DNA from: Thermodesulfobacteriota bacterium
GTDB lineage: Bacteria > Desulfobacterota_D > UBA1144 > Nemesobacterales > Nemesobacteraceae
Length of the DNA: 64,000 nucleotides
Reading direction: 5' to 3'
Assembly (NCBI GenBank): GCA_965263275.1
Contig: OZ253668.1
Span: 1,855,329 to 1,919,328 of the forward strand
In this document: piece after piece, positions 9,875 to 57,603 of the stretch
Numbering within the stretch: position 1 is the first letter of the stretch
Layout of the letters: each line of letters begins with the position of its first letter
Position numbers and translations under genes: made by a program
Notes under the pieces: generated by a model
The model's database searches: none
Seen by the model: only the letters and a program-made list of their open reading frames with translations
What the model was told of the DNA's origin: nothing

Positions 9875-10246
9875 TTCGGATCGGGCACGATAGCCTATCA
9901 TTAAACACACATTGTAAAGTCTCCATCGAATTTTCCATCGTTTTGATTAAAAGGACCGGGGCTGAAGGGCTCGTGTTCCTAGCCAGCTGTGGTGACAGTA
10001 CCAGAGAAGGAAAGGTACCCGTTCTTATCTCTTGAGAGGAAAGGGATGGGATGAAGGCACTTATATGGTTCTGTCCGCGGGCAGTTGGCGGAGAAGATGT
10101 ATTCGGGCCGTGGCTGTGTTCCTGCACATAGTTAATCATGAAATCCCCCAGAGTGCCTTGACTCTGAGCCGGTTTTGAGTTTAAAATAGAAACGAACGGT
10201 TGGTTGTTACTTGCTGGTCATTACAAAACTGGAAGGTTCCGATCAA

Positions 10247-10256
10247 GGGGGGGGGG
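10247..10256 (+). repeat. G10 homopolymer in the 5' leader of the SRCR gene
   Basis: Ten consecutive G by hand count, ending 22 nt upstream of the ATG at 10279 and just upstream of the AAGGAGG RBS. Confidence 0.85.
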
Positions 10257-10278: not shown

Positions 10279-11169
10279 ATGAAAGGAATAAGAGGCGTTG
10301 GAAAAACGGTTTTGATTATGGTGACCTTTTTTCTTTTTAGTTCTTGGAATGCCTTGGCACAAGACATAGATAATACGGTAGAGACTGTGTGGTCGGCAAC
10401 TATGACGGTAGGCAGCTTTACCGCCCGTGACGGCACGGTTTACCTCGGATATGAATCCGGCATATTCCTAGGCGATCTCACCGACAACAATTTCTCTTAT
10501 GAAGGTGTTAATTACCGAGTTAAGGGAATCGTGAAGCTCGGGGATAAGATGAGGTTAGATTTCCTTAATAATGAAGTGGGTTTCAAAACAGCATGGAACA
10601 GCTACAACAAAACTTTTTATCTGAATATCGGGGATTCCGTGCAGCTTGATTTCAGGGACCGGACCATTCCTAGTGCTGACGAAGATGAAGACTATGGATT
10701 GCACGAGGATGAGGTGCGGCGTGAATGGATAGGCCAATCCTCTTATGACTGGGCTGATGGTCAGGAAATCATTGTAAGCATAACTACCAAATATCTTGAC
10801 GGTGCTCTTAAGTTGCCTTTGGATTTGTCTCTTCAGAGCGGTACTGTGACAGCCGGGACAATCGGACGATTAAAGATATTTGATGACACCGATGGTGACG
10901 GCACTGGGCGGTGGAAAAGAATATGCGATGACAATTGGGGAGATGCGGACGCGGTGGTTGCGTGCAGCCAGTTAGGCCTCTCTGGGGGCAGTGCGAGAAC
11001 CGGGAATCAGAGTTCACACCTGAGCATCAGTACCGCGGAAACCTTCTTGCTGGACCAAGTGGAATGCGTTGGTACGGAAGACAGGGTAATTGACTGTCCT
11101 CATGATGGCCGTGACGTGCACGATTGCGCTGCATGGGAAATTGCCGGGGTTGAATGTACTTCCCCTTAA
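10279..11169 (+). CDS. Secreted protein with a C-terminal SRCR (scavenger receptor cysteine-rich) domain
   Basis: RBS AAGGAGG precedes the ATG. Signal peptide MKGIRGVGKTVLIMVTFFLFSSWNALA. The C-terminal ~100 aa (GRLKIFDD...GRWKRICDDNWGDADAVVACSQLG...LLDQVECVGTEDRVIDCPHDG...HDC...IAGVEC) follows the SRCR consensus. Confidence 0.8.
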   Translation: MKGIRGVGKTVLIMVTFFLFSSWNALAQDIDNTVETVWSATMTVGSFTARDGTVYLGYESGIFLGDLTDNNFSYEGVNYRVKGIVKLGDKMRLDFLNNEVGFKTAWNSYNKTFYLNIGDSVQLDFRDRTIPSADEDEDYGLHEDEVRREWIGQSSYDWADGQEIIVSITTKYLDGALKLPLDLSLQSGTVTAGTIGRLKIFDDTDGDGTGRWKRICDDNWGDADAVVACSQLGLSGGSARTGNQSSHLSISTAETFLLDQVECVGTEDRVIDCPHDGRDVHDCAAWEIAGVECTSP

Positions 11170-12016: not shown

Positions 12017-12664
12017 GTGACGGTCACACCGCTGGTAAAAGTAAAAAGGCTTATGGATGAACTTAAAAACCTGAGTCAGCAGGATCTCCAAGCCTTAAAA
12101 GAAAAATACGAATATACCTCAAGAGTCTTTCCAGACTCCGAATCGCTACTCGCTTTAGCTGAGGTCTATCTCGCACTTAGACAGGTAACAAAGGCCAGAA
12201 AGACTGTTTCCGATTTCACCCTTAACAAAGGTGATAGCAGCCGTGCGAGGTTTGTTCTCGCAAAAGCTCATCTTATGTGCTGGAATGCCACCGAGGCCGA
12301 GGAGGAACTTAGAAAAGCTCTTGAGCTTGACCCCCGCGACTCCCGAGCTTCCAAACTCCTTACCTACATATACAGAAGCAATGGAAAGATAGGTGAAGCT
12401 TTCAGGATTTCCTTGTTCTCTAGTCCCGGTTCGCTGAGCCAGGGAGAAAAACTACGAAAGCCCAGAGAACCTTCCCCCGCAGTGGAAAAAAAGAGCAAAT
12501 CACGAGCCGGGATTTTCGAAACTGAGACCATGCTTAATCTTTACGTCTCCCAAGGACTTTACGAAGACGCTCTCAAGATAGCTGAAACTCTCTGCGAAAT
12601 TGAGCCTGATAATCCCGCTTACCACCGCCGTCGTGATGAGATAAAGATCCTTATTGGCCAATAG
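12017..12664 (+). CDS. TPR-repeat protein
   Basis: Helical-repeat sequence ([70 protein letters not shown]). Start is GTG 12017 or ATG 12053. Confidence 0.7.
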   Translation: MTVTPLVKVKRLMDELKNLSQQDLQALKEKYEYTSRVFPDSESLLALAEVYLALRQVTKARKTVSDFTLNKGDSSRARFVLAKAHLMCWNATEAEEELRKALELDPRDSRASKLLTYIYRSNGKIGEAFRISLFSSPGSLSQGEKLRKPREPSPAVEKKSKSRAGIFETETMLNLYVSQGLYEDALKIAETLCEIEPDNPAYHRRRDEIKILIGQ

Positions 12665-12780
12665 CGAGGAATTTGGTTTTTCCGGGCGTAAAATCAACCT
12701 GGTTCCCATAGGCTTTTTGCGGCAAAGAACACTTGGTTGAAGCTAACCCAAGTTTACCAAGAAAACTCGTGAGTGGGACA

Positions 12781-15415
12781 TCAGGTCCATTTCTCTTCTA
12801 GCCGGGTTCTCCGCGAAATCGCAATCAGGGAAAGCATAATTAAAAGCAGGTTAAGCAGGGTGTTTTCCGGCATATTCCCCGCTCCCATATCCACAGCAAT
12901 CGCGCATCCCCCCCCCGTCTGTGGTTGTCGGTTGTTGCGTCTCTAATGGTGGATGCGACTGTTCTGTCGGTTGTTGCGGTTCTGATGGTGGATGCGACTG
13001 TTCTGTCGGTTGTTGCGTCTCTGTCGGTGGCGGCGGTGGCGGTGGTGGTGGTGGCGGTGGTGGCGGCGGCGGTGGTGGCGGCGGTGGTGGTGGCGGCGGC
13101 GGCGGAGAAGAAACATCGCCGAAGACCCAGGGACGGGCCTGCTTGATCGCCAGGATATTCTCGCTGGTGATCTTGAACTCTATTTCCATGGCGAACGGTT
13201 CATCGGCCGCGGGGTTGTACAGCCCCGCGAAGTGGTCATGGATCACTGTGAGGTGATCGCGCAACTGTATCAGTTGCGCGTCACTCATCAGGAGTTGCCC
13301 TGGCTCCACCAGGTTGGAGGTGGTAAGTACCCTGTATGTTCCATCCTTGTTCAACAGGATTTCCTCTGGCACCGAGAGCGCGTCGGGATTGGTGACCAGA
13401 TCCTCGCCGAGCTGCGTGTTGACGTAGTACCAGTCGTCACTGCCGGAGGTCAGGTCGGTCGGGTCAAAGCTGACGGCCACCCCGTTGGCCAACTCGTCTT
13501 TGTAGTTGGGATGGACCAGCACCCCCATCGCCGCGGCCAGATGATCGATGCGATAAAACTCGCGCTCGGTGAAGGCCCGGAAGGTCCACAGGCTCGCAAA
13601 CACCCCCTTGAGGGACTTGTCGATGCCGTCCTCCACCGTCTCATCGGGATTCTGGGTCTTGGAGTCGTACAGGCCCGCCCCGTTAAAGCCCGGCAGGTCT
13701 TCGTTGTTCGTGCTTGATCGGTAGCGTAGTGATTGCCCCTCCGGATACGTGGCGTGCATGGTGGTCAGGGCGTCGATTATCCCCTGGGGCGAGTCCGCGT
13801 CCTCGATATCGTCGCGCAGATCGTCGAGCATGTCGTCCTGGACGTCGAAGTCCGTCTGGAAGTCTGGGTCAGCCAGCATGGTTTCAATGCGGGCATAGAA
13901 ATCGTGGGCCTTCATGAACTCGTCGTAGAAATAAAACGGGATCGCAAACCCGTCGGGAACCGTCCCCTCGGGAAAACCAAGTGTCCCCAGCACGGCCACA
14001 TTCGCTGCCTTGACGCCGAATGCGGTCCAGTCCTCAAAGCCGATCTCACTGAGGGGCGTGATCTCGGTGACGGAGAGATCCCGTTCCGGCGTTTGTTCTG
14101 TGGCGGGTCGGGAAGACTCGTAGTGCGCGTCGACTTCTGCAACCGTGGCGGCCCCTATTTCCCATCCGTTCTCTGTCACTTCATAGCGGACGTAACTGCC
14201 GATGAGGGGCGCGATGGCAGGGTCGTCGCGGATGTCCCGGATGTAGGCGTTGGGGATGCCGTTCTGCACGGCGCGCAGGTTGACGTGCGAGAGCGGGGTT
14301 TGGGGCACGGTCGAGATGATGCCGGCCACGCGGGGCAGTTCGTTGGGTAGGGCCTCGTAGAGCACGATGTCGCGCGGGTGGGGCCGGTCGTCCGGGTCCA
14401 GGACTTGCAGCCGCCCGACCCCTTCCCCCGGGTTCAACGCCAGGAAGTGGATGTTGGAGTAGACGTCCCCGTCGAACACGAGGTTGATGCGGGATTCCCG
14501 GTACAACGGCAAATCGGACTGGATATACGGAAGCTCATGGTTCCGCACATACAAGGCCAAGTTGTCTTCGAGCAGCGGCATGCTGGCGGCGAGCAGCGTA
14601 TGGGTACGCTCCATAAGGCTGAAGGAGAAAGAGTAGCGGGAGGGGAGTGTATTTAACGAGTAAAGGTAGACGCCTTGGCTGCCATCGGGGGCAACGCGGT
14701 TCTGCCTATAGGCGATCGTGCCGAGAATTACCCGCTGCCGGTTGATATGCCTGTCATCCAAGAAGGTTTGATGTGTAGGGTGCGTATTGGCGTTGATGAA
14801 ATAGACACGCGGTCGGTCGGTGTCCATGCCGAGCAGAGCGAACTTGAAGTATCCTCCTATGGCAAGCGCATCGTATGTGTGCGTATCGGGAACAGCCACA
14901 GCCCCGTCGTTCAGTGGAACGTCGGTGGCAGGGTTGACTGGGTTCATGGCCCCCAGATCATTGAGCTCGGTGATGTCGTCGACACAGTCGCCGTCAACGT
15001 CAGCGGGGTCGGCGATGAGGTACTTCTCCACCCGGTAGCGCTCCTTGGGCAGCGCATCCACGTTTTCGGCCAGCGTGGTCGTGCCGGCTTCACCGCGCTT
15101 GACCAGTACCGGAATATCCACGGTCGTGTCTGCGTCCACCTCATGACTCACGTAAAGCACGAAGTAGTCGGCGGTCGTGGAGTTGACCACGATGGGAACG
15201 GCATTAACCTCTACCGCCGTCGGCGTTGTGTTATAGCTGTTTCCTGAACACATCTCTGACTGCGGGTTGCCCTGCGCCTGTATCGGCATCGGGGTGGCCA
15301 GTAGCGTGGCGAGTGCCAGCAGCGCTCCCGGTGCCGCGCGGAAAATCAGGAAGCGGGCGAGGCTTGCAAGACGGGCGAAACGCCCCCGATAGGGCTGGTG
15401 GTACTTCCGACGCAT
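12781..15415 (-). CDS. Secreted PEP/pyruvate-binding (PPDK_N, ATP-grasp) domain protein, copy A, with polyproline stalk. The C-terminal sorting tail is out of frame because of a G9 tract
   Basis: Signal peptide ...LLATPMPIQA. PPDK_N motifs FGVKAANVAVLG..VPDGFAIP, LRYRSSTNNEDLPGFNGAGLYDS, MGVLVHPNY, NGVAVSFDP, EIEFKI...ILAIKQARPW. The ORF as given stops at 12851. With 8 G instead of 9 it reads ...DGGGCAIAVDMGAGNMPENTLLNLLLIMLSLIAISRRTRLEEKWT* and ends at 12781. Confidence 0.8.
12908..12916 (-). repeat. G9 (plus-strand C9) homopolymer inside the PPDK_N copy A coding region
   Basis: Nine C by hand count. It sits exactly between the PT-rich repeats and the anchor-coding tail. Confidence 0.85.
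12917..13105 (-). repeat. Coding repeats: ~2.7 copies of a 39-bp unit (13-aa QQPTEQSHPP[SL]E[TP]) plus an 81-nt (CCR)27 polyproline tract
   Basis: 39-bp units at 12946-12984 and 12985-13023, with a partial copy at 12917-12945. Uninterrupted CCA/CCG codons 13025-13105 (27 Pro by hand count). Confidence 0.85.
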
Positions 15416-15774
15416 GGCGTCATACCGCCCAGCATCCCTCGGCGCCGCCCATATCTTGGGCGGTGCTATATGAGGCTGTAGGAGAAACGATTAAAAAGAG
15501 TAAAAGGTTGGAAAAACTTTCATCCATCATGGCACTCTCTGGGTTGTCAACATGGACTAGTTTAAAAAATTGCACTATATCAATAACTTACCGTTCCTTC
15601 CTTCTCCGTCAAGCAAAATTTGATAGGACCGACCGTAACTTCTTTTGATTGACCTGCTTATAGTGTGACTGGTGTGATGGAGCCGTTACCCTCGGCTGGC
15701 TTTGGACAGGTAGCCACGTTGTCAAACAGGGAACTTAAGTCAATGCCTGCGAAAAATTAGAGTTGAATCTGAAG

Positions 15775-15990
15775 CCTTACCCTCTCTGAAATTGAATCTT
15801 TTCTCTCCTCGAACACCGAGACCCTAGGCGATGATGTCCGGCTTTCTTTTTTTCAGTCAAATTCCGAAGGGGAAATAGTTACCGCAATACAGGATGCCTA
15901 CGGAAAGTTTGACGGAATAATCATAAACCCCGGCGCCTATACTCATACCAGCGTCGCCATAAGGGACGCCATACTCTCAACCGGAATGCC
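15775..15990 (+). pseudogene. aroQ 5' fragment created by the tandem duplication; lacks a start codon
   Basis: Matches aroQ 20937-21157 with substitutions and indels. About 100 bp including the ATG is deleted relative to 20832-20937. Confidence 0.8.
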
Positions 15991-16114
15991 TTACGTCTCC
16001 CAAGGACTTTACGAAGACGCTCTCAAGATAGCTGAAACTCTCTGCGAAATTGAGCCTGATAATCCCGCTTACCACCGCCGTCGTGATGAGATAAAGATCC
16101 TTATTGGCCAATAG
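15991..16114 (+). pseudogene. Duplicated 3' end of the TPR gene, fused in frame to the aroQ fragment
   Basis: Identical to 12541-12664. The junction reads ...ggaatgcc|ttacgtctcc, giving a chimeric [11 protein letters not shown]. Confidence 0.8.
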
Positions 16115-16230
16115 CGAGGAATTTGGTTTTTCCGGGCGTAAAATCAACCTGGTTCCCATAGGCTTTTTGCGGCAAAGAACACTTGGTTGAAGCTAACCCA
16201 AGTTTACCAAGAAAACTCGTGAGTGGGACA

Positions 16231-16365
16231 TCAGGTCCATTTCTCTTCTAGCCGGGTTCTCCGCGAAATCGCAATCAGGGAAAGCATAATTAAAAGCAGG
16301 TTAAGCAGGGTGTTTTCCGGCATATTCCCCGCTCCCATATCCACAGCAATCGCGCATCCCCCCCC
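16231..16365 (-). pseudogene. Orphan anchor-coding tail of PPDK_N copy B, severed by IS110
   Basis: Identical to 12781-12915. It ends in a C8 run that abuts the IS110 left end. In the G8 frame it encodes GCAIAVDMGAGNMPENTLLNLLLIMLSLIAISRRTR... Confidence 0.75.
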
Positions 16366-16590
16366 GATACCCTTTATCCAAGCTTAATTTAGCTAAAATT
16401 TAAGAATCAAGTTTAATAGAATTCACGGGCCACTCGATCGAGAGCTACCTGCCCCCCCTGCGCCTCTGAGCGCCTACTGGGGACTTGTGCCTCGGTCGAG
16501 TGCCGTGATGAATGATGTCCAGTAGGAAGTTCGTGCCTCTGAGCACCTCCGTATCGGAGCAGACACACACATCACGGCAAACCCGATTTA
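16366..16590 (+). ncRNA. Candidate IS110 bridge/seek RNA region (left non-coding end)
   Basis: ~225 nt upstream of the transposase with long-range complementary arms (cacgggccactcgatcgag / ctcggtcgagtgccgtg; cctactgg / ccagtagg) and duplicated gcctctgagc(g/a)cc motifs. One loop region carries a C7 run. Confidence 0.35.
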
Positions 16591-38877: not shown

Positions 38878-39915
38878 ATGGGAAAAACAATTTCAGGTAA
38901 CGAGAATTGCTTTGATAATATCGGTGTTCGAGCATGCGGAAAGAGGAAGAACCGAGCAATCTCTCTGCAGTGGTTAGATGCTTCCATCTTCAGTTGCGCG
39001 GGAATGTTGGCTGTCTTTTTCCTTGCGTTCTCACTCCTTAGCGTCGGCAATGTATGGGCGGGGGAAAGGGAATTTTTTCGAAAAAAGTTCCTTGTGAGCG
39101 AAACCACCAATGCAGAAGATTCGAACAACATACATACTGTGTATCAAGGAGGCCCTTTCACGAACGCTATATTTACCTATAATGGTGCCACCTACAGAGT
39201 TGAGCTTGTCGAGTCGGGGGATAGAGGAGTTAAGCTCAGGACGAACCCGAGCTTTCCGTCAACGCTGCAAGGGGCAAACAGAAGGGACTTTGATTTGCAT
39301 CTCGGTACTGAGGATGCTTCTGGCGATTATACCGAGAATGCCAGTTTTAATTTCAACAGGTGGAGCCAGTTATCTACAGTTCCGTCTTCTGCCAGCTACG
39401 ACACTCTATGGTCTGGGTCAGCCGGTTGGACACAGAGCGGAGAGAATGGCGTAATTCGTATAACCGGTCCGATTCTTAACAACGACCTTCAGTTCTCGCC
39501 TTACCTCCCGTTACCTACTAAGAATTCAGACGGGGTTGCAATTTCGGGTCGGCTTGAAATATTTGATGCTACGCAGGATACCGACGGCCAATGGAAGTGG
39601 ATATGCGACGATGGTTTTGGGGATGATGAGGCAAAGGTCGCATGCGGACAGCTGGGTCTTCCTGCAAGCGGAGCTACAACCATGGATCTGCCGGACGATT
39701 GGTTAGCAATTCCCGATAATCTTACTGGCTTCAAAGCTTTGCTTACTGCCGCAGCCATAACTTACTATTCAAGTGTTCCGGCTCTGCTCGATGACGTAGA
39801 TTGCGATGGTACGGAATCCCGGCTGATTAACTGTAACCATGCGGGGCGTGGAGCAACCGATTGCGATATATCGGAATCAGTTGCTGTCATCTGTCAGGAA
39901 GAAGCTTCCGAGTGA
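38878..39915 (+). CDS. Secreted/anchored protein with a C-terminal SRCR domain; paralog of 10279-11169
   Basis: GGAGG RBS; hydrophobic N-terminal segment. SRCR-like GRLEIFDATQDTDGQWKWICDDGFGDDEAKVACGQLG...LLDDVDCDGTESRLINCNHAG...DC...VAVIC. Shares the F[ST]Y.G..YRV motif with the first SRCR protein. Confidence 0.8.
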   Translation: MGKTISGNENCFDNIGVRACGKRKNRAISLQWLDASIFSCAGMLAVFFLAFSLLSVGNVWAGEREFFRKKFLVSETTNAEDSNNIHTVYQGGPFTNAIFTYNGATYRVELVESGDRGVKLRTNPSFPSTLQGANRRDFDLHLGTEDASGDYTENASFNFNRWSQLSTVPSSASYDTLWSGSAGWTQSGENGVIRITGPILNNDLQFSPYLPLPTKNSDGVAISGRLEIFDATQDTDGQWKWICDDGFGDDEAKVACGQLGLPASGATTMDLPDDWLAIPDNLTGFKALLTAAAITYYSSVPALLDDVDCDGTESRLINCNHAGRGATDCDISESVAVICQEEASE

Positions 39916-40978: not shown

Positions 40979-41806
40979 TCAGCCGGATGTGTCGCTTTCG
41001 GTGGCGAACTTCGCGGGTCTTCCCTGTTTTTTCTTCTGTTCCATGGCTTGACGGCGTCTGTAGCTCTCCACGTTCATCTCAAGTATCACGCAGTGATGCA
41101 CAAGGCGATCCACCGCTGCCACCGCGGTGTTTTCGTCAGGAAACACCTTTGTCCATTCGGTAAACGGCTGATTGGCGGTAATGAGCACGGAACGTTGCTC
41201 ATAACGGACCGATATCAGTTCGAACAGCACGCTTGTTTCGGCGTGATCTTTGCGCACGTAGGCCAGATCGTCAAGAATCAGCAGGTCGTAGCGGTCAAGC
41301 CTGTTGAGCATGTTCTCAAGGGACAGTTCCCTTTGAGCCGTCTGGAGCTTCTGAACAAGATCCGTCGTACGGGTGAACAGCACCCGTTTCTCCTTCTCCA
41401 CCAGAGACAAGCCGATTGCCGAAGCCAGATGACTCTTGCCCGCCCCCGGAGGGCCGAAGATTATCACATTGTGTCCGCCTCTTAGCCACGAATCGTTTGA
41501 AGCCAGGGCCATGACCGTGGGTTTGGATATAGTGGGAACCGCGTCAAAGTCGAAGTTCTCAAGGGTTTTTCCTGGAAGAAGACGGGCTTCGCCCAAGTGG
41601 CGGCGTATCCTGCGCCGCTGCCGCTCGGCAAGTTCAAGATCCGCGAGAGTTGCGAGCAGCCGGGCCGCGGGCCACCCCTCGGTATCCGCCCGTTCGGCGA
41701 ACCGCTCCCACATCTGCCTGATCGCGGGCAGCCGAAGTTCGCGGAACATGAGGTCAAGGTCGGCTTTTCCGATCTCCACCACCTTTTCATTGGGTTTCGT
41801 ATTCAT
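40979..41806 (-). CDS. istB: IS21 helper ATPase IstB
   Basis: Walker A GPPGAGKSHLA, Walker B LLILDDL. Confidence 0.92.
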   Translation of the reverse strand: MNTKPNEKVVEIGKADLDLMFRELRLPAIRQMWERFAERADTEGWPAARLLATLADLELAERQRRRIRRHLGEARLLPGKTLENFDFDAVPTISKPTVMALASNDSWLRGGHNVIIFGPPGAGKSHLASAIGLSLVEKEKRVLFTRTTDLVQKLQTAQRELSLENMLNRLDRYDLLILDDLAYVRKDHAETSVLFELISVRYEQRSVLITANQPFTEWTKVFPDENTAVAAVDRLVHHCVILEMNVESYRRRQAMEQKKKQGRPAKFATESDTSG

Positions 41807-43305
41807 CTCTGTCCTCCCGTTTCAAATAAAGAGCCGTAATTGTCGAGGCGGCCTCTATGGACGTCGACTCCGGGCATAGGCCCCGTTTTCACCGTGAACC
41901 GTTCTTTGAGCTCATCGATGTCGGGAAGTTCTCCCACAGAAACGCATTTCCCTATCGCCGAAGCCAGCTGGGCTTCGCAACTGTAATCATGGGCCAGAGC
42001 CAGAAGCTTTACCGCGACTCCGCATGCCTCCCGCCCCGAGAGAAGTTCAACAGCAAGCTCAAAACAACGCTTGTACTCCTCCCGGGGAAACAGCTCATCA
42101 CGGTAAACCAGATTCATAAACGCCCCCGGCTTGCGCCGAAGCGAATGAATCACGTGATGATAATTGACCGCGTAAGCCGTTTTCTCCGAAGATCCTCTTC
42201 TCCTGCGCTCAAGGGTAAGCAGATGACGGTCTCCCAGGTACAACTCTACTCTCTCATCGTAAAGACGCGCCGCGAGACGATGCCCTATGAGACGAGAGGG
42301 GACCGTGTAGAACACTCCCTTGAGCATGAAACCGCCGGAAGAAGTAACCCTTACGCTTTCACGCCGATAAAACTCCCCGTCCTGGGGCGGAAGAGACCCA
42401 AGCACCTTGCGCTCGGTCTCTATGCGCTCCACGCGCCGGGCGTTTAGACCGCTTAGCAGTTCCGCTATGAAGTCGCGGTAAGAATCAAGATCTGCAAAGT
42501 CCCGGGAACCCCGAAGCGCCAAAGCGTCCCCTATCTCCCTTTTCAGGTGACCGTGAGAACTCTCTATCGCCCCGTTTTCGTGGGCGACCCCGCGGTTGTT
42601 GCGCGTCGGCGCCATCCCGTAATGGGCGCAAAACTCCCTGTAGCTTGCGGTCATGTCCTCGACCTCGTCCTTGCTGAGATTGCGGAGAGCCGCCGAGAGA
42701 CTGTCGGTGCGGCACTCCCGAGGAACGCCGCCCAGCATCCCCAAAGCTTCGCTGAGACCCCGGGAGAAAGCGGCGAAGCTCTCCCCTCCAAGCACTGCCG
42801 TGGCGTGAACGAACCCCGACCAGGGGAGCCGGAAGTGATAGAGCTTGTGATCAAATCTCTTTCGGGCAATCGTGATCTCAAGGGAGTTCATGGTGGTGAA
42901 GTCGGAGATCCCCACGCGCCCCGGTTCCTTTTTCTGACGGAATATCACATCCTTGTCAGCGCCATGTTCAGCCCTCCATGCCTTTATACGCCTCTCAAGA
43001 GTCCTGCGAACTCCCGGGTCAAGCTGGGGATTTTCTCTCATTATTTCGCGGAACACCGCGACGGAACGTATATCCGGACAGTTCTTGAGAATGGGAACTA
43101 CCCGGGAATCGAAAATGCCATCCAGAGGATCGGGACGTCGGCTCCCCCGGGGCTTGTTTTTAGTTCCTGATTGCGGGTCCTTGGAGATTCGGAAACCGGT
43201 AGAGCGGCTGAAACCCGCTTTGGCAGCCGCGGTTTCCGTAGAACAAGTTTGTTTGAGCTTCATGAATTTCCTCCTTTGCTCGTCAGTTATATGTTGACCT
43301 GCCAT
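41803..43305 (-). CDS. istA: IS21 transposase IstA
   Basis: HTH N-terminus (MAGQHITDEQRRKFMKLK...) and a DDE integrase core. 4-nt overlap with istB. ATG at 43305 preferred over 43443. Confidence 0.9.
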   Translation of the reverse strand: MAGQHITDEQRRKFMKLKQTCSTETAAAKAGFSRSTGFRISKDPQSGTKNKPRGSRRPDPLDGIFDSRVVPILKNCPDIRSVAVFREIMRENPQLDPGVRRTLERRIKAWRAEHGADKDVIFRQKKEPGRVGISDFTTMNSLEITIARKRFDHKLYHFRLPWSGFVHATAVLGGESFAAFSRGLSEALGMLGGVPRECRTDSLSAALRNLSKDEVEDMTASYREFCAHYGMAPTRNNRGVAHENGAIESSHGHLKREIGDALALRGSRDFADLDSYRDFIAELLSGLNARRVERIETERKVLGSLPPQDGEFYRRESVRVTSSGGFMLKGVFYTVPSRLIGHRLAARLYDERVELYLGDRHLLTLERRRRGSSEKTAYAVNYHHVIHSLRRKPGAFMNLVYRDELFPREEYKRCFELAVELLSGREACGVAVKLLALAHDYSCEAQLASAIGKCVSVGELPDIDELKERFTVKTGPMPGVDVHRGRLDNYGSLFETGGQR

Positions 43306-43487
43306 CGTGAACCTCCCGCTCAATAGATTGAGCGGGGTTCTTACCCGGCCGGTCGTGAACACCGAAAGAAATTCAAAAAAATCTGGAGAGATGCTGTCTG
43401 AAACGGAAGGAGGGCGTAGCCCGACTGGAGTTTCAGACAGCATCTCCCCAGAGTCTCATCTTGTTTGTCGCAAAAGTCCTAAGTTGA

Positions 43488-44105
43488 TTGTCGCTGTACA
43501 TGAAGCAGTTTTTAGAGAAAGCCTATTCGCTTATGACGGCATCCTTTTCTGTTGACCTGTTTGATCCTGTGATACTGCGCAGGGTTTTCAGGTTTGAAGG
43601 AGGACCCTGGAGGAATGACTCTACCTATATCTATATAATGGATGACAAGGGGAACACTATATTTAACGGTGCGAATAGAGACATTGAGCAGACGAATTTA
43701 CTGCATGATCATGGTCCTGAGATTGCGCGGATAGCTGTGGATATCAGAGCCGCGGCTATGACGAGGACGGAGGATGGAAATAGTTTCGTCGGAGGTTTTG
43801 TGAATTACAATTGGGATGATCCTGCTGTGATAGGAGACGAGGGTGATGGTCGTCCGGGAGGTTCTTCTCCAAAGCTTGCTTTTGTAAAAGCCTTTACAGT
43901 TGCGGTTGATAAGGACAAACCAGTGGATAATCCACGCATCTATATTTTTGGTTCAGGACTTTACTTGGGCGGTTTGCAGGGTGACGATGGAGACGGAGGG
44001 TGTGTGATTGCGGGGACGGAAAACAGTCTTGGAAGCACTGTAGTTAACCTGCTTCTGGTTGTATCCGGTATCTTTTTCGTTGCCTTTATTCGGCACAAGA
44101 GTTGA
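43488..44105 (+). pseudogene. Cache-like surface protein, 3' part (second Cache-like module plus the GGC sorting tail)
   Basis: ...GGPWRNDSTYIYIMDDKGNTIFNG... and C-terminus GDGGCVIAGTENSLGSTVVNLLLVVSGIFFVAFIRHKS*. No upstream start or signal peptide of its own. Confidence 0.7.
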
Positions 44106-54519: not shown

Positions 54520-56088
54520 CTATACGCGCCTTCTCAAGAAGACAACCGAGAACAAAACGGATGTTATCAGGAACAGGTTAAGCAAAGTGCCTTGAGACGA
54601 CGTATTGCTGGTTCCGGCGATGGTGCATCCTCCGCCGCTAACAGCGTCTACTACCTCTTCCACTATGTCGTCCATGTCATCCATGTCGTCCATGTCATCC
54701 ATGTCGTCCATGTCATCCATGTCGTCCATGTCATCCATGTCGTCCATGTCATCCATGTCATCCATGTCATCCATCATGCCATCATCTTCCGGCGGATAAA
54801 CTCCGGAACCGAAGATGAAGGGCTGCGGAGGAAAATTAGCAGCAACAGCCATAAGAGTAACAAGAGGATTATCAGCTAGTCGAACAACTGTTTCTGCGAC
54901 CATTCCGTATAGGTCCGCCACCTCGATGTAGCTTGTCTTGGGTGACATGCCGGGAACCACTCTTTGTTCAAACCAGTCAGGAGGGTCTGGCGAGTCACCA
55001 GGCTTTAACCAGTGATATTTGACTGTAGCGGAATCTCCGATTTCTGGGCTTCCTCCTAATTCGTCGTTAAACAGTTTCGCTATGTTCTTTTCACCTTGCA
55101 GCTGATTATCATTCAAGTCAAGGTTAGCGCCGTTTAGATCAAAGTTGGTTCCGTTCACAAGCACTGTGGAATCTGCTGGATCCGCACTCATTACGAAAGC
55201 ATATATGCTTCCATACTTGAAATCCTCGCTTCCAAAACAAAAAAGCCGCTCTTGAATTTTTGTGGTTGTGATGCTATCAAGCATTTGATACTCAGCACCA
55301 GTTGGGTCGGCTAGACTAAGCAGATTGATTATGGTTGGCTTTGGGCCGAACATCTCGATCAATGCGTCCTCTGTTATATTTGCTACGTCTTTTTGAACCG
55401 CTTCTATAACACTTTTTACGTAAGCTTCAAGCTTCGTCTGGTCGCCCTCAACCTCCGCAGCGGTAGTGGTAAGATCAAGACCGGCACAGACAGGAGGATC
55501 AAAAGCGGAGTCGTTTGCATCGTGAACAAGACCTGCTATGTTCGTTACATCTACAGTATAGTCGCTCTCTACTTTAGTCGCGCAGGCTACACTGCCCTGG
55601 CCGTCGTAATCTTCTTCGCACTCCGTAGTCCCAATACCTGAACTTCTTGCTTTGTCGAGTAAAGCTTTTAAAGTAACCGCACCCTCCGAATTCGCGGCAT
55701 TCGGATTAAACTTGTGACCTATCAATCCGGGATGTCCCGCGTGATTCGTTACAAGGTTATTGTCGTTTATGCCTATTGCGTAGAAATTACCGTGCTTATA
55801 GTCTCCGCCATCTGTACTGTCTTGCCTGATATTCCTGGCGAATATTGTCAGCTCTCTGACTAGCTCGGCGCGATCCGCAACGGGATCGAATCGGTCCCTA
55901 ATCCCATTGTAGTACTCCACTATATGATTAACAAAGTCCTCCACGTCCTCTTTGACTTCAGGGTCGACCTCGTCCGCGGTTATGGTCTGACTGCCTCCGT
56001 GACTTGCGGACGCGTCAATGCTGAATGAAAAAACAAGCCCTAACGCAAAAAACAGGCTCAAAAGTATTCCGTGCATTTTAAATTTCAT
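54520..56088 (-). CDS. Double Cache-like surface protein with a (Met-Asp-Asp)12 linker and the GGC sorting tail (gene A; the only intact family member in the window)
   Basis: AGGAGG RBS; signal peptide MKFKMHGILLSLFFALGLVFSFSIDASA; two Cache-like modules. C-terminus ...GGGCTIAGTSNTSSQGTLLNLFLITSVLFSVVFLRRRV*. Confidence 0.8.
   Translation of the reverse strand: MKFKMHGILLSLFFALGLVFSFSIDASASHGGSQTITADEVDPEVKEDVEDFVNHIVEYYNGIRDRFDPVADRAELVRELTIFARNIRQDSTDGGDYKHGNFYAIGINDNNLVTNHAGHPGLIGHKFNPNAANSEGAVTLKALLDKARSSGIGTTECEEDYDGQGSVACATKVESDYTVDVTNIAGLVHDANDSAFDPPVCAGLDLTTTAAEVEGDQTKLEAYVKSVIEAVQKDVANITEDALIEMFGPKPTIINLLSLADPTGAEYQMLDSITTTKIQERLFCFGSEDFKYGSIYAFVMSADPADSTVLVNGTNFDLNGANLDLNDNQLQGEKNIAKLFNDELGGSPEIGDSATVKYHWLKPGDSPDPPDWFEQRVVPGMSPKTSYIEVADLYGMVAETVVRLADNPLVTLMAVAANFPPQPFIFGSGVYPPEDDGMMDDMDDMDDMDDMDDMDDMDDMDDMDDMDDMDDMDDIVEEVVDAVSGGGCTIAGTSNTSSQGTLLNLFLITSVLFSVVFLRRRV
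54667..54774 (-). repeat. 12 tandem copies of a 9-bp coding unit (ATG GAY GAC = Met-Asp-Asp)
   Basis: Alternating gtcgtccat / gtcatccat units on the plus strand, by hand count. Confidence 0.9.
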
Positions 56089-56245
56089 CCTGAAAATTCC
56101 TCCTGCAACTTTTTTTACTGCCATGATATCCATCATGGAGCAGAACTAACAATTCTAATTCACATTCTATTACAGGGAAATTCGGATTACAAGAAGAAAA
56201 ACAGGTTCCGGCGCGATATCCGCTTCGATGGCCATGCCGCGGAAA

Positions 56246-56547: not shown

Positions 56548-57603
56548 CTATGCGCGTCTTCTCAAAAAGACAACTGAGAACAGAACAGACGCTATCAGGA
56601 ACAAGTTGAGCAGAGTGCTCTGAGACGTATGTCCCGTCCCTGCGATGGCGCACGCTCCGTCGTCACCGTCTCCTGCCATCATGTCATCCATGTCGTCCAT
56701 GTCATCCATGTCATCCATCATGTCTGGAGGATAAATTCCGGAACCGAATATATAGAAAGCTGGATCGCCAAGTCCAGACGTATTTGTATTCTTTACCTCA
56801 ACATAGCTTGTCTTGGGCGACATGCCGGGGACCACGCTTCGTTCAAACCAGTCAGAAGGCTCCGGTTGGTCACCAGGTATCAACCAGTGATAGTCGACAA
56901 AACCTCCCTGCCCGTCCGTCAGTTGTCCGTTAACAGTTACCGCGTCGCGAATCAGCTTCGCTATATCTTGTTTATCAGCTGGATTCATCGGATCTGTTAG
57001 TCGGAAATTCAGGCCGTTCAGGTCGGAGCTTTGCCCGTTTAGAAACACGGTGGCATCTTCATCTGCGGACATGATAAAAGCGTATATGGAACCATCCTTG
57101 AAAGGTGCCATACTAAAACAAGCGGCTTCTTCTAGGGACCTTTGACCTACGAACCTACCAAATTCGGCCCGCATAGTGGGGTCAAGAGGATTTATCCCTT
57201 TCATAAAGGCTTCTGTCCCTATCCTCGTTAGTAGATCTACGGATGTCTCAATAATATCCTTTACATACTGTTTAAGATTGTCTTTGTCTTGGCTTGCATT
57301 GACGTCCACGGCTGTAACGGTCAAGGGCACTAAATTGGAACAGTCGGGAGGTAGTGCATCGCTTGGCGCGTGATTATAACCTACTATTGAGGTCACCGTT
57401 CCGCCGGCGGTGTCCCCTTTAATTGCGCATGCCCACTTGCTGCCGTTATATTGTTCGCAGTATGGAGCGGTGGTGGCGTTATCGAATAAGTTTTTTATAG
57501 TTCCGGGCGAAGAAAGATCAAATCTGTGACCATACAAATTAGTATGTAGCCCGTGATTTTTTACTGGACTGACATAGTAGTGTAAAATCAGCCCTTCATA
57601 CAT
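56548..57603 (-). pseudogene. Cache-like surface protein gene B, 5'-truncated: no signal peptide, no RBS and most of module 1 missing
   Basis: Colinear with gene A from inside module 1 (YEGLILHYYVSPVKNHGLHTNLYGHRFD ~ GNFYAIGINDNNLVTNHAGHPGLIGHKFN). C-terminus (MDD)4...DDGACAIAGTGHTSQSTLLNLFLIASVLFSVVFLRRRA*. Confidence 0.65.
56683..56718 (-). repeat. 4 tandem copies of the same 9-bp Met-Asp-Asp unit
   Basis: gtcatccat / gtcgtccat units by hand count. Confidence 0.9.

Follow-up and report, generated by a model that had tools for sequence, protein, structure and literature searches.

A 64,000-nucleotide (nt) stretch of a Thermodesulfobacteriota genome (contig OZ253668.1, positions 1,855,329 to 1,919,328; hereafter the window) carries two tandem copies, A and B, of a gene for a putatively exported protein with a PPDK_N domain. 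The source appears to be an uncultured, host-associated symbiont with a small genome and a wealth of eukaryote-like surface proteins (SRCR, LRR, fn3). We focused on copy A, in which a run of nine guanines (G9) separates the body of the protein, here called the passenger, from a candidate C-terminal sorting tail. The features of copy A, in window coordinates and with lengths in amino acids (aa), are as follows.

12851..15415, minus strand: PPDK_N copy A as assembled, 854 aa, with an 18-aa off-frame end MRDCCGYGSGEYAGKHPA; Pfam PF01326
15275..15415, minus strand: putative N-terminal export signal, aa 1-47, read from the sequence as a basic n-region, a hydrophobic core ALLALATLLATPMPI (hydropathy 1.87) and IQA before Q48
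13130..14017, minus strand: PPDK_N (ATP-grasp-like nucleotide-binding) domain of copy A, PF01326
12917..13120, minus strand: linker of copy A, with GDVSS, 29 Pro, TETQQPTEQSHPP-type (TEQ-type) repeats and a TTTD end
12908..12916, minus strand: G9 homopolymer (C9 on the plus strand) of copy A at the linker/tail boundary, +1 out of frame relative to the tail
12781..12906, minus strand: sorting-tail reading frame of copy A (CAIAVDMGAGNMPENTLLNLLLIMLSLIAISRRTRLEEKWT, then stop), open, unjoined to the passenger at G9
12814..12861, minus strand: hydrophobic helix of the copy A tail by hydropathy (TLLNLLLIMLSLIAIS), then RRTR

Around the tract the minus strand reads ACCACAGAC-G9-ATGCGCGATTGC, with the codons ACC ACA GAC GGG GGG GGG ATG CGC. 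As assembled, the C-terminus of copy A is ...TTTDGGGMRDCCGYGSGEYAGKHPA, with a stop at 12851. Removal of one G (G8) yields an 877-aa product ending in ...DGGGCAIAVDMGAGNMPENTLLNLLLIMLSLIAISRRTRLEEKWT with its stop at 12781-12783, and addition of one (G10) leads to a third, short end, ...GGGDARLLWIWERGICRKTPCLTCF. The tail is joined at G8, G11 and so on, G9 gives the 18-aa end, and G7 or G10 a 22-aa end. The 833-aa passenger and linker are unchanged in all three frames, and the transmembrane tail occurs in the G8/G11 frame only: TLLNLLLIMLSLIAI, in the G8 frame, is the only strongly hydrophobic 15-mer (mean Kyte-Doolittle 2.59, then RRTR), and the alternative ends are hydrophilic (means of -0.55 and 0.13). 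A pair of peptides, MRDCCGYGSGEYAGK and CAIAVDMGAGNMPENTLL, would tell the alternative ends of copy A apart. The initial annotation had located G9 at 12908-12916, the stop at 12851 and the G8 end at 12781; these coordinates and its hand translation proved exact. It had also placed the tract precisely at the linker/anchor boundary, which is where we find it, between a Pro/Thr/Gln linker and the tail. Its proposal that G8 would restore a family sorting tail was borne out, the restored tail matching the profile of a shared tail family at E=2.9e-23.

The passenger is predicted to begin with an export signal at residues 1-47. Its PF01326 match covers aa 467-762 (E=2.8e-20, 73.3 bits against a gathering score of 27), and the domain has remote similarity to phosphoenolpyruvate synthase structures. 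Copy A has more than 2,400 homologues, in many of which fn3, cadherin or Big domains follow the PPDK_N part; an extracytoplasmic location fits this arrangement. The family is a very large exported one in which an N-terminal region of about 450 aa without known identity precedes PPDK_N, often followed by fn3, cadherin or Big domains, and an ATP-grasp-like domain is an odd constituent of a protein outside the cytoplasm. The passenger is under purifying selection: the ratio of nonsynonymous to synonymous divergence (dN/dS) was 0.19-0.34 in every pair compared, tail-uncoupled copies included. As the ratio is low even between uncoupled copies, the PPDK_N copies are working genes and no pseudogenes. 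The proline run of the linker (window 13000-13120 and 18060-18210) varies in length, with 29 and 35 prolines in the window, about 13 and 8 in a related genome (L007) and 5 in another (L004), all in frame.

In the tail itself, a glycine run with an invariant cysteine is followed by a spacer, then a hydrophobic helix, then a basic cluster, with the consensus [DE]-G-G-G-G-C-[AST]-[ILV]-A-x-[DN], a spacer of about 10 residues, [LF]-N-L-[LF]-L-I, hydrophobics, S-[RW]-[RK] and basics. An exhaustive profile search of 1.84 billion representatives (E<=0.001) found it in 51 representative proteins, at or near the C-terminus, a few of them with a read-through extension or a fusion to the next gene. A word-index protein search with the tail profile had returned two short open reading frames (ORFs) only and missed known carriers; the exhaustive search was used instead. 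The passengers of the tail (63-1206 aa) include LRR arrays, fn3, cadherin, Calx-beta, Cache-like and PPDK_N proteins and are otherwise unrelated. More distant PPDK_N orthologues from metagenome-assembled genomes of Thermodesulfobacteriota carry the tail in frame (P0013 in L002, OZ252213.1; P0125; and P0053 in L005). A profile built from the family tails found three further tail-bearing genes in the window.

43488..44105, plus strand: tail-bearing gene (GDGGCVIAGT...VVNLLLVV...), in frame; Gly codons GGA GGG TGT
54520..56136, minus strand: tail-bearing gene (SGGGCTIAGT...LLNLFLI...RRRV), in frame; Gly run GGC GGA GGA TGC
56548..57603, minus strand: tail-bearing gene (DDGACAIAGT...LLNLFLI...RRRA), in frame

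The last two encode weak Cache-like domains and long (Asp-Asp-Met)n linkers before the tail, and are partly repeated copies of each other (81-87% identity). In eight other tail genes (two distant PPDK_N orthologues, the three window genes and three unrelated carriers) the glycine run is written in mixed GGN codons, the longest stretch of G being 5-7, and all are in frame. It follows that the PPDK_N paralogues of this lineage acquired their pure G tract secondarily. The initial annotation had named orthologues without a homopolymer at this boundary as a finding that would count against a switch. This is the case for the distant orthologues in L002 and L005, which have mixed codons and are in frame, whereas close orthologues all carry the tract. 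Over its first 43 nt the coding sequence of the tail is identical in this lineage (window 12864-12906) and in L005 (L005:8388-8430), between genes whose passengers differ at a synonymous divergence (dS) of about 0.59; the same 43 nt show one change in L002. Tail dS is about 0.19, a constraint on the nucleotide sequence. An exact 22-nt scan for the tail start gave zero matches in the JGI metagenome collection and OZ252213.1 only in species-representative genomes. The 854-aa product of window copy A is itself absent from the protein records.

Against curated models (TIGR03901 MYXO-CTERM, NF033191 JDVT-CTERM and others) the window tail gave nothing at E<=1, and other family members reached only sub-cutoff scores (MYXO-CTERM 9.6 against 20 bits, JDVT-CTERM 7-10 against 27 and Heimdall-CTERM 14.8 against 24). 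Because all curated scores are below cut-off, we place the tail outside every named family and in the general Cys-type class only. Proteins of that class bear tripartite C-terminal sorting signals (Haft, 10.1101/2023.06.07.544157), and the tail has the corresponding parts, an invariant-Cys signature, then a helix, then a C-terminal basic cluster, on unrelated passengers. As judged from its sequence, it is a real shared module of sorting type that has no description in any curated library, and it would anchor or sort the protein that bears it. Neither a CPBP-type (PF02517) nor a sortase-like protease was found among 40 window ORFs scanned (of 74 of at least 150 aa).

In a related genome, a 1.66-Mb contig (L001/L007) shows synteny with the window at 94-98% identity and includes both PPDK_N copies, allowing a comparison of tract lengths at the same sites. 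The copy B orthologue (P0005, 825 aa) has G7 and the end DGGDARLL..., out of frame. The copy A orthologue (845 aa; tract at L007:16084-16095) reads ACAGGAC and then G12, that is, with an extra upstream G, and is also in the DARLL frame. The copy A passengers of the two genomes differ at a dS of only 0.024 despite G9 in one and G12 in the other. Across homopolymers of at least 6 nt with conserved flanks, 13 of 15 had the same length in the window and L007, all of them 6-7 nt long; the two that differed were long G tracts, the present one and one other. The window shows no general homopolymer damage: elsewhere long homopolymers occur in genes that are intact, such as an A9 run within a 500-aa ORF, and the dcw cluster mraZ-rsmH-ftsL-ftsI is intact as well. 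The other variable tract (10247-10256, plus strand) is G10 in the window and G9 in L007, and lies in the leader of an exported, host-interaction-type SRCR-domain gene (10279-11169), some 20 nt ahead of the ribosome-binding site; a promoter-like site is found further upstream (10158-10187). A second SRCR-domain gene is at 38878-39915 (plus strand). Two further sequences were set aside: L008, the contig that encodes P0122, was left out of the evidence because its coverage is 2x and its ORFs are fragmented, and a frameshift in P0003 (L006), considered as a related case, lies away from any homopolymer and is unrelated.

In copy B the same boundary is interrupted by an insertion sequence (IS) of the IS110 family, which the initial annotation had overlooked.

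17938..20496, minus strand: PPDK_N copy B, 852 aa, with the end ...TTTDGG-LPTFHQVLNLYI, running into the IS
17978..17982, minus strand: upstream half-tract of copy B, G5
16366..17977, plus strand: IS110-family element within the copy B tract, recombinase gene 16591-17874; boundaries uncertain by the core length
16358..16365, minus strand: downstream half-tract of copy B, G8
16231..16356, minus strand: orphan sorting tail of copy B, inside a 375-nt stretch identical in both copies

The recombinase scores 165 bits against NF033542 (cut-off 140) and contains PF01548 (DEDD_Tnp_IS110) and PF02371 (Transposase_20). The element has a non-coding left end of 225 nt and a right end of 103 nt, without terminal inverted repeats. 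An IS sits at the identical junction, after the fifth G, in window copy B and in L004 (L004:3130-3179), a SPAdes-style contig from another sample whose gene is 96.6% identical to copy A (not B) and whose IS copy is slightly different. A third copy of the IS, 94.8% identical, lies at L002:10684-12305 in another transposase gene, at the G-rich site GG|IS|GGGAGGGG. A recombinase above cut-off, sequence-specific insertion, the lack of terminal inverted repeats and a long non-coding left end together characterise the element as a member of the IS110 family. Two guide-like features of its left end, a C7 run (16452-16458) and a 9-nt repeat of right-end sequence, would fit bridge-RNA guides. Neither the tract region nor the IS had an Rfam match. 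Members of the IS110 family require a specific sequence around a short core for insertion and leave no scar on excision (PMC11208160). With the shared GG (2 nt) as the core, the copy B tract would have been G11, in frame, before the insertion.

The two copies stem from a tandem duplication of about 3.45 kb (window 12541-16365 and 15771-21157). From the tract onwards, 375 nt are 100% identical between copies A and B, and the gene bodies are about 87% identical. Since the related genome shows the same internal pattern, the 3' ends evolve in concert. The duplication also carries a chimeric ORF (15773-16114, plus strand), made of an aroQ (DHquinase_II) fragment and the last 42 codons of a TPR gene. 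Other mobile elements are present nearby: an IS21-type element (rve and IstB) lies between the PPDK_N copies of the related genome (L007:10773-13116) and is absent from that place in the window, and Mu-like and Mutator-family transposases occur elsewhere in the window (41803-43443 and 63162-63902).

Taking these observations together, we consider it most likely, on balance, that copy A contains a hypermutable G tract which currently gives a tail-less protein and which might be put to adaptive use as a switch. The G run would have grown from the Gly-Gly-Gly-Cys signature of a Cys-type C-terminal sorting tail, so that tract length would decide between read-through into the tail (G8, G11 and so on) and a short off-frame peptide. 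Copy A of the window would represent the tail-less state, in which the protein is exported by its N-terminal signal and is neither anchored nor sorted, and slippage of -1 or +2 would re-join its tail. In copy B the tail is cut off at this same point, here by an IS110-family element whose target is the G-rich site. Several properties expected of a homopolymer contingency locus are found here: the tract is uninterrupted, lies in coding sequence and, at G9, exceeds the length of about 7 nt from which such loci are recognised; a change in its length alters the product in a defined way (tail, 18-aa or 22-aa end); and its length varies (G9, G7, G12) among close relatives while the flanks are conserved. 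G8-G11 coding tracts in Bordetella pertussis tcfA and bapC vary within single cultures (PMC1891110), and for this reason slippage is to be expected at G9. We suppose that the changes in length arise by replication slippage; they may be reversible on ecological time scales, and the released and anchored forms may differ in function. Most cells in the sample probably encode the tail-less form.

Several points weigh against this interpretation. In the close lineage, three tracts are uninterrupted and all three are out of frame, and the IS disrupts a further two loci, although three out-of-frame tracts are not a significant departure from random frames, where the probability is (2/3)^3 = 0.30. Any out-of-frame length also lies one base from an in-frame length, making a one-base consensus error possible for each tract. 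Nor are G runs of at least 8 enriched in the window: GGGGGGGG matches 6 times against 3.9 +/- 2.2 in shuffled sequences, and 23 of 100 shuffles reach 6. What is non-random is the position of the tract, at the same codon in the paralogue (where it is split by the IS) and in both orthologues of the related genome. That four copies of the tail differ by only 0-1 change in 126 nt is no proof of selection, as recency and gene conversion can explain it. The argument for selection on the tail from its 100% identity was accordingly dropped, given the homogenisation of the A and B 3' ends within each genome and the copy A dS of 0.024. The initial annotation had envisaged slippage toggling between anchored and released forms without an effect on the passenger. 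The intact passenger in all frames and the varying tract length among near relatives agree with this; with no in-frame tract among the three, toggling is a possibility only.

A degenerative loss of the anchor, in which the tail was no longer needed, a first slip uncoupled it, and drift and IS hits followed, would involve a real frameshift but no switch; we regard this as a lesser possibility, though one to be taken seriously. All five close-lineage loci are uncoupled (G9, G7, G12 and two IS insertions), the passenger is still under purifying selection without the tail, so that the tail-less protein evidently works, and gene conversion and low divergence explain the identity of the tails. Simple anchor loss and toggling fit the absence of in-frame alleles equally well. 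Anchor loss fits less readily with tracts that are long (up to G12), uninterrupted and uneroded by substitutions, with a tail frame that is open in four of four copies with at most one substitution, and with the second variable G tract (G10 against G9) before an exported SRCR gene of host-interaction type, a pattern typical of contingency loci; the divergence is, however, too low for decay to be visible either way. Somewhat more doubtful to us is the full form of a switch, a localisation contingency locus in which poly-G slippage toggles the PPDK_N protein between sorted or anchored and released states, and in which the tract is also a programmed bridge-RNA target of the IS110 element, providing a second OFF state that would be reversible without a scar. 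The insertion in copy B can be likened to that of IS492-type elements, whose reversible insertion acts as a phase switch.

The extra G could also be an artefact of assembly or polishing, the true sequence being G8 and the gene intact. Long G/C homopolymers are a classic weak spot of long-read consensus, the related contig names seem typical of long-read metagenome assemblers, and G9 is one base off an in-frame length. We nevertheless judge this improbable: it would need miscalls in three independent tracts, and the copy A orthologue, with G12 against G9 plus another indel, exceeds a one-base miscall. In 13 of 13 cases a homopolymer of 6-7 nt has the same length in the window as in L007, the A9 run is in frame, and the window shares an identical G5 half-tract at the IS junction with the SPAdes-style contig from another sample. 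Recoding, finally, would let the G9 allele reach the tail by programmed ribosomal frameshifting or by RNA polymerase slippage, with both forms made from one allele. Identical Gly codons permit perfect tRNA re-pairing in any frame, and long homopolymers, chiefly A/T runs, are known sites of transcriptional slippage. The shift needed is not constant, however, being +1 for G9 and -1 for G7 and for G12 with its extra G; the sequence around and downstream of the tract shows no stable RNA fold (z=+0.88) and no Rfam match, and the distant orthologues need no shift at all. Programmed frameshifting was rejected on account of the inconsistent shifts among alleles and the lack of a stimulatory structure, and we consider recoding as a whole very improbable.

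If the hypermutable tract does serve as a switch, a simple repeat would change where a protein is located, cell-bound or released, with its active part intact, unlike classical on/off contingency loci. Whatever the outcome on that question, the most useful by-product of the analysis is the definition of an uncurated tail, GGGC...[LF]NL[LF]LI...R/K, that marks probable surface proteins of these bacteria, and the tract provides a natural example of a G-rich target of an IS110 recombinase. For annotation, copy A should be neither silently repaired nor labelled a pseudogene.

Each component of the locus resembles a known system and departs from it in a definable way. The tail is closest in layout to the MYXO-CTERM class, with which it shares a Gly-rich signature ending in an invariant Cys, a hydrophobic helix and, right at the C-terminus, a basic cluster, as well as its occurrence on unrelated passengers in a phylum related to Myxococcota. 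It differs in having a spacer of about 12-16 residues (A-I/L-A-S-D/N...) between the Cys and the helix, and a helix with a conserved [LF]NL[LF]LI motif. The element in copy B resembles IS110 bridge-RNA recombinases such as IS621 (PMC11208160) in its DEDD and Transposase_20 domains, the lack of terminal inverted repeats, a left end longer than the right, and the same target sequence at independent loci; scarless excision would restore the tract. Where those recombinases have a bridge RNA, the element here shows guide-like matches only.

The tract invites comparison with Bordetella pertussis tcfA (G9) and bapC (G11), which likewise have an uninterrupted poly-G run of 7-12 nt in the coding sequence of an exported protein, vary in length between strains, and lose the C-terminal part of the product upon frameshift (PMC1891110). 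The tcfA tract starts at codon 130, and a shift there is presumed to inactivate the protein, whereas here the tract follows the whole passenger, inside the tail signature, and a shift removes the anchor or sorting signal only. Variation within cultures is demonstrated in Bordetella; here the length differences are between genomes only. A parallel for the outcome comes from Listeria monocytogenes, in which premature-stop alleles of InlA lead to secreted InlA without its LPXTG anchor. There, too, a mutation upstream of a C-terminal sorting signal turns an anchored protein into a released one, but most InlA truncations also take away some of the passenger and serve as stable markers of lineages. 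Set against these systems, the feature described here would behave as a homopolymer contingency locus that affects a sorting tail instead of expression, at a site that an IS110 element targets as well.

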